Part shown: positions 10,521 to 13,785 of the stretch, in pieces
Layout of the letters: every line of letters starts with the position of its first letter
Numbering within the stretch: the first letter of the stretch is position 1
Origin: a virus
Taxonomy: Duplodnaviria; Heunggongvirae; Uroviricota; Caudoviricetes
Virus record (IMG/VR): IMGVR_UViG_2671180296_000013
Span: 1 to 25,079 of that record
DNA: 25,079 bases
Strand: one strand, 5' to 3'
Translations under genes and position numbers: made by a program
The notes under the pieces: model-generated
The model's input: the letters and a program-made list of their open reading frames with translations, nothing else
What the model was told of the DNA's origin: nothing
Databases searched by the model: none

Positions 10521-10694
10521 TCATTCCCGAACCACCTTGAAACCGAGCCTTTCCAGGTATTCAATGAATGCCTCGATAGATAAAATTACATGATCATCAG
10601 GAATTAACGTTGCGTAGATAACTTCCCCATTCTCAACGCGCACAGCATAGAGGCCATTTTCACTAAAAATTTCACGCAATTCTTCGATTTTCAT
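10521..10694 (-). CDS. Small hypothetical protein (57 aa)
   Basis: Hand-translated: MKIEELREIFSENGLYAVRVENGEVIYATLIPDDHVILSIEAFIEYLERLGFKVVRE, TGA at 10521-10523, AGGA about 9 nt upstream. Too short for the supplied track. Confidence 0.35.
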   Translation of the reverse strand: MKIEELREIFSENGLYAVRVENGEVIYATLIPDDHVILSIEAFIEYLERLGFKVVRE

Positions 10695-10849
10695 CAGCAG
10701 AATCCTTCCGGATAATTAGCACTCCCCTGTTTGGGGTCCATCCCTCTTCTCCCTGCGCGCTAACTAAGCAATATGATTCTATTTACTCCAAACGGCCCCT
10801 CAAGTACCACAACCAAAGGAGTACACAAAAAGCTAATCAACTACGCTGC

Positions 10850-10877
10850 ACAACAAAAAACCCGCCGAAGCGGGTTA
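10850..10877 (-). terminator. Intrinsic terminator (minus strand) downstream of hok
   Basis: Stem aacccgc (10859-10865) pairs with gcgggtt (10870-10876), loop cgaa; on the minus strand it is followed by TTTTTTGTTG. Confidence 0.6.
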
Positions 10878-10944
10878 AGTGCGGGTGCGTTGAGGATGCC
10901 TGACACATCAGAGGTGGCGAGGGATTTCTCCCCCGCCTGGTCTC

Positions 10945-11100
10945 TTACTCCTCAGGTTCGTAAGCTGTGAAGACAGCGACCTCCGTCTGGCCGGTTCGGA
11001 TTCGTACCTCGCAGAGGTCTTTCCTTGTTACCAGTGCCGTCACTATGACGGTTAAACAGATGACGATCAGGGCGATTAGCATCGCCTTTTGCTGCTTCAT
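10945..11100 (-). CDS. hok: Hok/Gef-family type I toxin (51 aa); the overlapping upstream frame to 11157 is mok-like
   Basis: MKQQKAMLIALIVICLTVIVTALVTRKDLCEVRIRTGQTEVAVFTAYEPEE is a single transmembrane helix plus periplasmic tail and matches Hok/RelF-type peptides as I recall them. Confidence 0.8.
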   Translation of the reverse strand: MKQQKAMLIALIVICLTVIVTALVTRKDLCEVRIRTGQTEVAVFTAYEPEE

Positions 11101-11274
11101 AGCCTGCTTCTCCTTGACCTTTCGGTCCGTAAGAGGCAATCTATATGTGACGAGCATATAGGGGCCTCACTTTGTACTGACCCCAAAAAGTTGGACAGTT
11201 AAACACGAGGCAGATAGCCTCAAGCACCCGCAGCAATTCTACTTAACTCTGCCGTTACAGCAAACCGTTTTCGC

Positions 11275-11298
11275 CCGATATGGGAATTCCCATATCGG
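11275..11298. repeat. Perfect 24-bp palindrome ccgatatgggaattcccatatcgg in the hok upstream region
   Basis: Directly read; exactly self-complementary and centred on GAATTC. Confidence 0.8.
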
Positions 11299-11382
11299 AA
11301 TGAATTCAGTTCACCTGGCGAGGCTTAGCGTACAATTTTTTCCGTTTTGTGAGCTGCCCCTACATGCCGCTGGCGCGGCATC

Positions 11383-11414
11383 CGGAAAAAGAATCCACGT
11401 CCTGAAGGACGTGG
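11383..11414 (-). terminator. Intrinsic terminator (minus strand) immediately after the binding-protein gene
   Basis: Stem ccacgtcc (11395-11402) pairs with ggacgtgg (11407-11414), loop tgaa; on the minus strand it is followed by ATTCTTTTT. Confidence 0.6.
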
Positions 11415-11420
11415 AGGATG

Positions 11421-12179
11421 TCAAGTGCCTTTCCTGGTCCAGCCATATTTTTTGAATGCAGGCGCCGCTTCATCGGTTTGTAGCCATTCTGCAAATCGAC
11501 GGGTTTCATCATTTGCATCCTGACGTACTGTAATGTTCATATCACGCCATATCACGTAGTCTGGCGCTATTTCCACGACATCACCAATTTCTGGATTACT
11601 GGCTGCCCAGTCAGCCCAGGTTATCCAGACATCTGCTTCAGGCTGATTCTCAAGAGCCTTACGTGCAGTTCCGCTGTTGGGCGCATATAAAATAATATTT
11701 TTTCGGATTGCGGCGACAGTTTCTATATTCCCTTTACGTCCGGCAATATCTTCCCAGACGCCAGTGCCTGATGTATTACTGGTACCACCACCATCATTAA
11801 CAATTACGCCAATCCCGGGTCTGGTCAGGTCGTCAATACTCCGGATATTTTTAGGATTACCTTTCTTTACCAATAAAATACTTTTTCGCAGATAAAGAGG
11901 CTGAATATCTTTTTCACTGAAGCTGTCTTTATGGTCCCGAATGATAGCCAGAGCAGATTGTTCTGATGCGCCAAACAAGATATCTGCATTTTTTTTGGCA
12001 TCTTCATTCCATTTGTTCTGTGGGCCGTAATGAACGTTCACTATAATACCTGTTTTTTCGGCATAAAGTTTGGCTGCATCAAGCAAGGCTGTATGCGGGC
12101 CACCAGGACCATACAGATTGATATCAGCATAAGCAGCAGAAGACAGGAATATTAAAAAACCTGCCATTATGTTCCTCAT
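11421..12179 (-). CDS. Secreted periplasmic substrate-binding protein, ModA-like (molybdate/tungstate-type PBP fold), orphan
   Basis: 252 aa with signal peptide MRNIMAGFLIFLSSAAYA; overall layout and C-terminal FKKYGWT resemble ModA-type binding proteins. AGGAG SD, own terminator, AT-rich upstream region, and no adjacent permease or ATPase genes. Confidence 0.55.
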   Translation of the reverse strand: MRNIMAGFLIFLSSAAYADINLYGPGGPHTALLDAAKLYAEKTGIIVNVHYGPQNKWNEDAKKNADILFGASEQSALAIIRDHKDSFSEKDIQPLYLRKSILLVKKGNPKNIRSIDDLTRPGIGVIVNDGGGTSNTSGTGVWEDIAGRKGNIETVAAIRKNIILYAPNSGTARKALENQPEADVWITWADWAASNPEIGDVVEIAPDYVIWRDMNITVRQDANDETRRFAEWLQTDEAAPAFKKYGWTRKGT

Positions 12180-12597
12180 AAAAAACTCCTTTTATTGGTT
12201 ATCATGAAATAAAGTTATAAACACTACAAATAATATATATTACATCCAGATAAACTTATCCGACTTTACCTCGTGCATAGTTTGTTATTTAAAGTTAACA
12301 AAATAAGGAAAATTATACGCATATTGAAGAGTATAAACCTTACATGTTGATTACATTTTTGTAATCAACATCCTGTTTGGAATAGCCAGCCTTTAATGGA
12401 TAACTATTTCTGACAATGCAATGAGTATAATCAAGTCCATCTTCCACTGAGAATTAGAGGCGGCATGCTTTTTCCGGCTCTTGCCGGATATCCGTAATTG
12501 TCCATAATCTGCAGATTTATACCTTCAGCATGACCTGTCAGCGAAAATTTGTCCGGTGTTTCTACGGGAATGACATCAAAAGTTACACGCACTCGCG

Positions 12598-13003
12598 TTA
12601 CCGTGTAGACCTACTTTCCTGCACTTGCAAGATCACAGTGGTGTAACCGTAACAGGAATTTATTCTCTGGACCGGCAGTAAATCCCTGAGTGGCGTGGTT
12701 CCCATATCAATTTCCCGCCAGGCAGCCTCCATTGCCAGCGTACAGGCTGGAGCCATGACCTGCCCTTTAAATCTGGCCCGACCATCCCACCGGACGTGTT
12801 CTTCTCCCCTGAACTTAGGTACAGTCATCTCCAGTGGCACAAAAGTGTCAGCGCCATGATTTTTGACCGTTATCGCGCTACGGATATTTTGTTGACTGGT
12901 GAAAATCACCCCGCAGAATCAGGCTTATTCCCTTAACCCGGGCTTTCATCCTGACCGCCGCCTCACTACGGCCAATCAGACTGCCGATGCATTTTACCTT
13001 CAT
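12598..13003 (-). pseudogene. Hypothetical gene of unknown function, apparently split over two frames (ORFs 12878..13123 and 12598..12909)
   Basis: MKVKCIGSLIGRSEAAVRMKARVKGISLILRGDF in one frame continues as TSQQNIRSAITVKNHGADTFVPLEMTV... in the other; no family recognised. Confidence 0.3.
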
Positions 13004-13038
13004 TGTTAGTATCATGATTTCAGGCCTGCACCATCCAC

Positions 13039-13785
13039 TCATTGCCCGGACTTCCGACAAATCCCGGCAACCATATCCCGGTGCTTGTTCAGCTCCCGCA
13101 GCGCGGCGCAGACTCGCTCCCACTTCTGGACATGATTCTTCGCCCTACGCAGTTCGCGATTTGCCATATGCAGCGATGCCAAAATCAAATCATCTTCTCG
13201 CGTTGCAGTAAACGATGGCAGCGACTGCACAATGTCCGCCACAGTTTCTGTTTTAATATCTTCCTGTGTTGCATCTTTCTGTACCGGTAACGCAACACCG
13301 GCTGGCTGAGGAAAGGCTTTACCATCGGTTTCCGCTACCGATTCAACTTTCGGCTCTGCTGGTAAATTATCACCTGGTATGCAGTAACGAAATTTACCGT
13401 TCTGGTTTACGCGAATCAGACGACCTTTGCTGATTGCCATTGCCAGCGTTGAAGCAACTTTGCGGGATGTTGTACCGAACAGCGTAGCCAGTTCATCCGC
13501 CGTTTGTGGTCCGCGTTGTTCAATCGTCGCGGTTAAATCGCACTCTGAGATTTTCGCTACTGTTGCCGTGGTGGTTTCTTCCGGCTGTTCTTCTGGCGCT
13601 GGCTGTTCCTGCTGAACGTTGTTATCAGCCACACGCCAGGGGTACGCGCTTTTATCAACAAAACCAGCCTTTTTCAGTTCCCACAGCTCGTTCAGCACTT
13701 CTTCACGACTGATATCAAGTCGCGCAGCCAGCTCTACCGACGAGGCTTTTCCCATCGCTTTCAGTGCGTCAAAAACAGTCTCCAT
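13039..13785 (-). CDS. Phage protein with N-terminal winged-helix-like domain (DUF1627-like)
   Basis: 248 aa with a strong GGGAGG SD; N-terminus ...[29 protein letters not shown] looks like a wHTH, followed by a Pro/Glu-rich linker. Confidence 0.5.

Follow-up and report, generated by a model that had tools for sequence, protein, structure and literature searches.

The long open reading frame between positions 11383 and 12480 of the window (the whole stretch of 25,079 nt of Caudoviricetes DNA that was analysed, to which all positions below refer) is almost certainly paa (adfO), a known virulence-associated accessory gene (moron) that is carried on lambdoid prophages of EHEC, EPEC and ETEC-type E. 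coli. Nothing counts against this identity, and the find is ordinary and already known: Paa/AdfO has been described since 1999–2003 and is annotated in hundreds of genomes. The preliminary description, which had presented an orphan ModA-like binding protein carried as a self-contained moron, had implied that the gene was novel; this implication is to be dropped, because the exact protein is the named factor Paa/AdfO. The product is an orphan member, with a solute-binding fold, of the AcfC/PEB3/Paa family of colonisation factors.

Identity of the gene and its product

The list of open reading frames contains a single long entry inside 11383–12480, which lies on the minus strand, starts with ATG, encodes 252 aa, and is oriented in the same direction as the replication, early-right, nin-type, lysis and late genes of the prophage:

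11421–12179, minus strand: paa (adfO) coding sequence, stop codon (11421–11423) included; 252 aa with an 18-residue signal peptide

The encoded protein is an exact match to RefSeq WP_001815900.1, "AcfC family adhesin Paa", and the same protein is present in at least 999 contigs of the public protein collection. It differs from the Paa/AdfO protein of O157:H7 strain TW14359 at a single position (E181G). E. coli RM9088 and OkiPb01695 match the window over a region of 1.7 kb with 100% DNA identity, and the genes in it are annotated there as paa, fimbrial protein (pseudogene) and hokD. The RM9088 copy is named Paa in the literature (PMC8565820, PMC10562709), and phage records label the gene Paa or adherence factor AdfO. 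Porcine attaching-effacing associated protein (Paa) and AdfO are the same protein; in O157:H7 EDL933, adfO is z2053 and belongs to O-island 57 (prophage CP-933O), where it is reportedly always accompanied by ckf (z2054), a hok-type gene (PMC8565820, PMC10562709). The mature protein would have 234 aa, a mass of 25.8 kDa, a pI of 5.7 and a net charge of about −3; with this pI, it is not a polycation.

Genomic context and distribution

Along the minus strand, paa is preceded by a DnaT-like replication gene, the gene for replication protein P, a DUF1627 gene, a 54-aa phage ORF and a fimbrial remnant, and it is followed by hokD/sok, a DUF1367 gene, a DUF1364 gene and a Q-like DUF1133 gene. The position between replication and nin-type genes, as it had been proposed from the sequence, is thus confirmed, with P and DUF1627 on one side and hokD, DUF1367, DUF1364 and DUF1133 on the other. 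The constant downstream neighbour of paa is the toxin locus:

10945–11229, minus strand: hokD (published as ckf) toxin gene at 10945–11100 and sok-like antisense region at 11098–11229

RefSeq annotates the toxin gene as hokD, and the PHROG comparison assigned it to MokW-like host killing (7.5e-33). In an Rfam scan of 10400–13000, only sub-threshold matches were obtained, a sok-like and an isrK-like one, both below paa, and the AT-rich leader of the gene remained empty; the sok-like region reached 37.9 bits, under the gathering score of 59.

The local order of P, DUF1627, small ORF, fimbrial remnant, paa and hokD (ckf) is shared with the O157:H7 copy. The carriers differ, the O157 copy residing on OI-57 and the copy of the window on a Rac-type prophage at ttcA, which also contains a pertussis-like AB5 toxin pair and an IS21 element. 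The LT-II enterotoxin genes of the RM9088 relative are missing from the window.

Of 5426 complete E. coli genomes, 611 contain the DNA of paa, at 582 chromosomal places and 36 places on plasmids, and 564 of the records are at least 99% identical. The serotypes include O157:H7, O55:H7, O145, O111, O103, O45 and O121. The complete arrangement of fimbrial remnant, paa and hok is present in 574 genomes.

No permease or ATPase genes were found near paa, the neighbours being the fimbrial pseudogene upstream and hokD downstream, in agreement with the preliminary description, and linkage to modB/modC was not seen either, no permease or ATPase gene being present among the annotated matches to the window. 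Homologues that also lack a cognate transporter, usually behind a long intergenic gap, occur in Edwardsiella, Enterobacter, Campylobacter and E. albertii and on Salmonella IncFII plasmids. The E. albertii homologue is inserted into the aga sugar locus; the Enterobacter homologue has an ABC operon as a neighbour, about 690 bp away, but this operon comes with a binding protein of its own. Because the homologues stand alone in all these settings, the orphan status is a trait of the AcfC/PEB3/Paa family and not special to the phage copy.

Export signal

The first 18 codons of the gene have the layout of a signal for export:

12126–12179, minus strand: predicted signal peptide of the Sec/signal-peptidase-I type, MRNIMAGFLIFLSSAAYA, codons 1–18, with predicted cleavage before D19

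The N-terminus of Paa, MRNIMAGFLIFLSSAAYA followed by DINLYGPGGPH, has one basic residue, a hydrophobic core (up to 2.8 in a 9-residue Kyte-Doolittle window) and A-Y-A at positions −3 to −1. The signal peptide was called by inspection of the hydrophobicity and the AXA motif and by alignment. The mature chains in the PEB3 crystal structures begin at the residue that is aligned to D19 of Paa, and the same Sec signal layout is present in all 22 family members. A lipobox was not found, and the whole Paa sequence is devoid of cysteine, so that Paa cannot be a lipoprotein. Likewise, neither a membrane anchor nor an outer-membrane targeting feature was found in the sequence. Paa is predicted to carry a cleavable Sec signal peptide and no lipid anchor.

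Fold, family and ligand class

Pfam SBP_bac_11 covers residues 20–247 of Paa (E 1.6e-34), and the solved structures nearest in sequence are those of PEB3 from Campylobacter jejuni (E 4.1e-82) and AcfC from Vibrio cholerae (E 1.5e-81), both matching over residues 11–248, to which Paa is about 52–55% identical. The AF2 model of Paa (pLDDT 90.2) has the two-lobed class-II binding-protein fold and superposes on the solved AcfC/PEB3 members. In Foldseek comparisons, the values were TM 0.90/0.97 with an rmsd of 1.1 Å at 52% identity for AcfC (4jb7), and TM 0.87–0.88/0.95 for PEB3 (0.88/0.95 for 3fj7). The homology therefore places Paa in a solute-binding-fold family and not in a non-binding-protein family, and the secreted product with a binding-protein fold that had been expected from the sequence is borne out by the Pfam match, the model and the predicted signal peptide.

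The conservation of the inter-domain pocket was assessed in an alignment of 22 sequences from at least six genera, with members from Enterobacteriaceae, Aeromonas, Vibrio, Francisella, Helicobacter and Campylobacter. All 66 invariant columns are kept in Paa, including GPGGPH, SxQS, SNTSGTG-WED, NSG and DxWxTWxDW. By this alignment, Paa appears to retain every family-invariant residue of the pocket. Going by the PEB3 structures, these motifs are presumably ligand contacts. That pathogens and non-pathogens have the same invariant pocket suggests that the binding of a small molecule is under selection.

The next structural tier after AcfC/PEB3 consists of ModA (TM 0.66–0.73 at 12–18% identity) and the sulfate-binding proteins, 1sbp matching Paa with E 5e-4 by sequence and TM 0.70/0.59 by fold. 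ModA and Paa share the class-II periplasmic binding fold, the SBP_bac_11 family and a similar size. Membership in the ModA family was rejected, because the TIGR01256 equivalog reached only 18.6 bits at a cut-off of 62.5, and other modA models 12–18 bits at cut-offs of 253–470. The same was true for the sulfate/thiosulfate-binding proteins (Sbp, CysP), with 19–23 bits at cut-offs of 155–308 and a match that was confined to residues 93–146. The designation "ModA-like" is thus apt for the fold, ModA being the nearest solved fold outside the own family of Paa, and wrong as a family name. The ligands in the solved relatives are phosphorylated C3 acids (L-phospholactate, 3-phosphoglycerate), phosphate and D-aspartate, and not molybdate or tungstate (structure entry titles; PMC12469816).

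Two relatives allow a closer comparison. AcfC (accessory colonisation factor C) resembles Paa in family, fold, signal peptide and the lack of a cognate transporter, as well as in its location on a mobile pathogenicity element and its colonisation phenotype (PMC5976639). However, acfC is in an operon behind the chemoreceptor-like gene acfB on VPI-1 (PMC5976639), whereas paa is a solitary gene with signals of its own, next to which no chemoreceptor gene is located. PEB3 (2hxw, 3fj7, 3fjg, 3fjm, 3fir) is about 53% identical to Paa, has an identical SNTSGTG loop and identical other pocket motifs, is also encoded by an orphan gene and is needed for normal gut colonisation (PMC12469816). In contrast to Paa, which is acidic and located on mobile elements, PEB3 is basic (pI about 9 in its relatives), N-glycosylated and encoded in the core chromosome. 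The PEB3 sequon DFNVS is aligned to a stretch of Paa, DSFSEKD, that has no sequon.

Cargo slot and portable unit

A sibling Rac-type prophage at the ttcA site of strain 06-00048 is collinear with the window up to 11321 and again from 13069, and contains unrelated cargo in between (DUF551, methyltransferase, DUF977 and others). As the collinearity on both flanks encloses different genes, the intervening region is a variable cargo slot. Next to paa, this slot harbors the remains of a fimbrial gene:

11322–13068, no strand assigned: variable cargo slot, bounded by the blastn break points 11321 and 13069 against the sibling prophage
12381–12845, minus strand: piece from within a papH-like gene for a minor fimbrial subunit, abutting the upstream edge of the paa unit

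The corresponding RefSeq fimbrial pseudogene (12340–12873) is frameshifted and has an internal stop. The two longest ORF fragments of the remnant gave nothing in Pfam, and the remnant was identified by comparison at the DNA level: strain ECC-1470 has an intact gene for a 195-aa fimbrial protein, part of a pap-like chaperone-usher operon, to which it shows 85.6% identity. The fragment is a scar from an earlier genomic home and records the pick-up of the unit. The cassette junctions were also searched for terminal or target-site repeats of the IS type, and only short pairs at chance level were retrieved. One of these pairs (11382–11394 and 12465–12477; 13 nt, 92%) roughly coincides with the borders of 11383 and 12480 that had been set for the element in the preliminary description.

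The extent of the element is indicated by an IncFII plasmid of porcine ETEC, which encodes a Paa protein with 92% identity, and the DNA homology of which with the window is limited to 11358–12383. These 1026 bp comprise two 3' hairpins, the gene and a leader of 204 bp that is rich in AT. They constitute the portable unit that prophage and IncFII plasmid have in common. Its features outside of the coding sequence are:

12180–12383, minus strand: AT-rich leader that accompanies the gene (about 25–27% GC); the plasmid-variant homology ends at 12383
12186–12191, minus strand: Shine-Dalgarno motif AAGGAG, 6 nt 5' of the ATG, invariant in prophage and IncFII plasmid copies
12312–12317, minus strand: candidate −10 hexamer TATAAT, 138 nt 5' of the ATG, with a weak −35; the perfect hexamer is kept in the window, O157 and plasmid copies
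12344–12371, no strand assigned: inverted repeat from a repeat search, with perfect 12-bp arms separated by 4 nt, ATGTTGATTACA-N4-TGTAATCAACAT; it overlaps the expected −35 region
11384–11415, minus strand: intrinsic terminator from a terminator scan, with a 9-bp stem at 11415–11394 (6 G-C pairs) and a 4-nt loop, followed by TTCTTTTTCC
11357–11387 (core 11364–11381), minus strand: second G+C-rich hairpin, which lacks a T-run and lies where the portable unit ends on its 3' side, conserved in window, O157 and plasmid

The GC content is 27.1% in the upstream region from 12180 to 12430, 43.9% in the gene and 49–52% in the flanking phage genes. A promoter at TATAAT 12312–12317 is suggested by the conservation of the hexamer; a consensus promoter scan that required both hexamers did not pick it up. 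The palindrome at 12344–12371 has one copy in the window, with 0.01 expected by chance, and its core is kept in the plasmid copy. Based on this conservation, the 28 bp represent a candidate operator. An operator of the phage is ruled out, because the palindrome occurs only once in the window and is also present on the plasmid copy. It is not known to match any operator: for the consensus sites of FNR, TyrR and CRP, the spacing or the order of the half-sites does not fit.

The terminator begins 6 nt past the stop codon, and the RNA fold of the 3' region has a free energy of −32.4 kcal/mol (z −3.2). Its stem is more complete in the window than in the O157 copy, in which the 5' arm is shortened, and the arm is mostly gone in the plasmid copy. 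Altogether, the AT-rich upstream region, the own terminator and the self-contained nature of the moron, all of which had been proposed from the sequence alone, were found again in this analysis: the sibling has other genes in the slot, and the gene moves with leader and terminator between prophage and plasmid. We conclude that paa is a moron in the early-right region, as is evident from a sibling without paa, a deviating composition and a clear terminator of its own, with the own promoter being a candidate only.

Possible roles of Paa

According to the summaries in PMC8565820 and PMC10562709, mutants of paa/adfO adhere less well to HeLa cells and pig ileum, and the account in PMC8565820 also has them colonising less well. 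In what these reports and PMC5976639 say of the protein, Paa figures as an adhesin required for attaching-effacing lesions. In an adfO mutant, other proteins were also produced and secreted differently (PMC8565820). RNA-seq of EDL933 showed that the gene (as "acfC") is up in rumen and rectal contents while the phage is not induced, and that uninduced lysogens transcribe the O157 copy (PMC8524897). AcfC was recovered in the periplasmic fraction and affects chemotaxis to mucin, while adhesion to cells was unaffected by its loss; in ELISA, the purified protein preferred heparin, chondroitin sulfate and mucin to hyaluronic acid (PMC5976639).

The explanation to which we give about even chances is that Paa is a periplasmic sensor or shuttle for a small anion, which works via a membrane partner of the host, and that the effect on adherence is indirect. 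The mature 25.8-kDa protein would act in the periplasm and would close on a small anion of the type of a phosphorylated C3 acid, phosphate, sulfate or an acidic amino acid, which would be held by the SNTSGTG loop and its neighbours. Information or the ligand itself would then be handed to a host-encoded chemoreceptor, sensor or transporter in the membrane, and the adherence phenotype would not result from binding of Paa to the host cell. This explanation is favoured by the lack of an anchor, by a pocket that is invariant in pathogens and non-pathogens, and by the acidic character of Paa in comparison with the basic PEB3-type proteins. Sensing of a ligand would also fit with the periplasmic AcfC, which has a role in mucin chemotaxis and none in adhesion, with L-phospholactate and D-aspartate in the solved relatives, with the changed production and secretion of other proteins in the adfO mutant, and with a gene that stands alone throughout the family, without a cognate permease or ATPase. 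Among the functions that had been considered in the preliminary description, feeding of or signalling to a host membrane partner stays viable, whereas sequestration of a nutrient and a surface decoy are without support.

A true adhesin, which would be exported via Sec, reach the surface or the medium and bind host structures such as sulfated mucins or glycosaminoglycans as the first step of attachment, is in our view rather unlikely, although RefSeq and the literature use the name adhesin. The reduced adherence of the mutants, as summarised in the two reports cited above, and the binding of AcfC to heparin, chondroitin sulfate and mucin argue for it. However, a lipobox, an anchor and an outer-membrane targeting feature are all missing from the Paa sequence, the mature protein is mildly acidic where PEB3-type proteins are basic, the pocket for a small ligand is invariant in pathogens and non-pathogens alike, and AcfC is periplasmic and dispensable for adhesion, in contrast to Paa/AdfO with its less adherent mutants. 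It is far less probable that Paa is a ModA-type binder of molybdate, tungstate or sulfate, which scavenges the oxyanion for the lysogen or feeds the host transporter ModBC or CysUWA. The common fold and Pfam family, the rank of ModA and the sulfate-binding proteins as next-best structural matches and the weak local matches to sulfate-binding models near the SNTSGTG loop are consistent with such a role, but the scores fall far below the family cut-offs, the identity to the ModA structures is low, modBC genes are not found near paa, and the relatives with 52–55% identity contain phospholactate, 3-phosphoglycerate, phosphate or D-aspartate in their solved structures instead of oxyanions of Mo or W. 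Moreover, E. coli itself already encodes ModA, Sbp and CysP. We give least credence of all to a functionless passenger, that is, decaying foreign DNA retained by the adjoining hok/sok addiction module together with the fimbrial remnant. The neighbouring fimbrial gene is indeed a dead fragment, and the terminator has lost part of its stem in O157 and on the plasmid. Yet the ORF of paa is intact, the nearly identical 564 records and the single amino-acid change between window and O157 speak against decay, every family-invariant residue is retained, and mutant phenotypes as well as regulated transcription have been reported (PMC8565820, PMC8524897). According to the literature, clean deletions reproducibly impair colonisation or adherence, and the defects are complemented in trans.

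Implications

paa/adfO is a catalogued virulence-associated marker for the risk profiling of STEC, EPEC and ETEC, and its prophage site by ckf/hok has been published. The present analysis defines a portable 1-kb unit that occurs both in prophages and on IncF plasmids, a candidate operator that is conserved, and the scar of a fimbrial gene. The remaining interest is modest and concerns the role of Paa as an adhesin or as a periplasmic ligand sensor. We tentatively suggest, as a possibility that we rate as somewhat short of probable, that Paa is no adhesin at all, but an orphan periplasmic sensor that is supplied by the prophage, plugs into a chemoreceptor, a two-component sensor or a transporter of the host, and is under the control of the 28-bp palindrome. 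If this is true, lysogens would gain a chemotactic or regulatory response to an anion derived from the gut, which would be a compound similar to phosphoglycerate or phosphoenolpyruvate, an acidic amino acid, or sulfate liberated from mucin.

Prophage type and insertion element

The whole window (right end at about 21200-25079) represents a Rac-type lambdoid prophage with intR, xisR, ralR, a recE-type gene, kilR and ydaS/ydaT-like genes. In the closest relatives of the window, the integration site adjoins ttcA. The lysis/late region is interrupted by an IS21-family element (3607-5573, minus strand), which is adjoined by an antirepressor-like open reading frame:

3607-4404, minus strand: istB of the IS21-family element
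4401-5573, minus strand: istA of the IS21-family element
5647-6120: P22_AR_N antirepressor-like open reading frame of 157 aa

The closest relatives, the E. coli strains RM9088 and OkiPb01695, lack this IS21/antirepressor-like stretch. The RM9088 relative carries LT-II-type enterotoxin genes among its lysis genes, which are missing in the window.

Sequences surrounding paa

Two palindromes, two sub-threshold small-RNA matches and a gene remnant are located around paa, the gene of the AcfC/PEB3/Paa-family protein:

10855-10936, minus strand: isrK-like match just below the toxin gene hokD (Rfam, 30.5 bits versus a gathering score of 50)
11098-11229, minus strand: match to the antisense RNA sok, overlapping the hok leader (Rfam, 37.9 bits versus a gathering score of 59)
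11275-11298: perfect 24-bp palindrome, CCGATATGGGAATTCCCATATCGG, between the hok region and the paa unit
12344-12371: perfect palindrome in the paa leader, spanning 28 bp (two 12-bp arms around a 4-nt spacer), upstream of the conserved TATAAT
12381-12845: fimbrial remnant upstream of paa, an internal piece of a papH-like gene

The isrK named by the Rfam match is a prophage sRNA. The 28-bp palindrome occurs once in the window, and its core is also kept in the plasmid-borne copy of the paa unit; it is a candidate for the operator of a regulator.

An intact papH-like counterpart, 85.6% identical to the fimbrial remnant, is present in E. coli ECC-1470 (locus L012, 6963-7550). It is part of a pap-like chaperone-usher operon, which has pgtABC, genes of phosphoglycerate sensing, and a fragment of an IS21 element as neighbors. 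As 3-phosphoglycerate is a ligand of the Paa relative PEB3 of Campylobacter jejuni, this neighborhood is a curious match, which may be due to chance.

A glycosylation-type motif in Paa

Paa contains one D-M-N-I-T motif around the family-invariant N215:

11531-11545: D-M-N-I-T, paa codons 213-217

The motif agrees with the Campylobacter-type N-glycosylation sequon D/E-x-N-x-S/T. Paa does not conserve DFNVS, the sequon that is used in PEB3. E. coli is not known to have the pgl system, and the Paa motif has no obvious relevance in this species.

An AB5 toxin pair

A pertussis-toxin-like AB5 toxin pair (7427-8645, minus strand) is flanked by a Q-like antiterminator gene and holins:

7427-7909, minus strand: B subunit, annotated as 'subtilase family AB5 toxin binding subunit'
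7920-8645, minus strand: A subunit, Pertussis_S1 match (E 5e-15), 'scabin-related ADP-ribosyltransferase' in RefSeq

The pair in the window is compatible with the prophage-borne toxins of the EcPlt/ArtAB type that are reported in PMC11610972.
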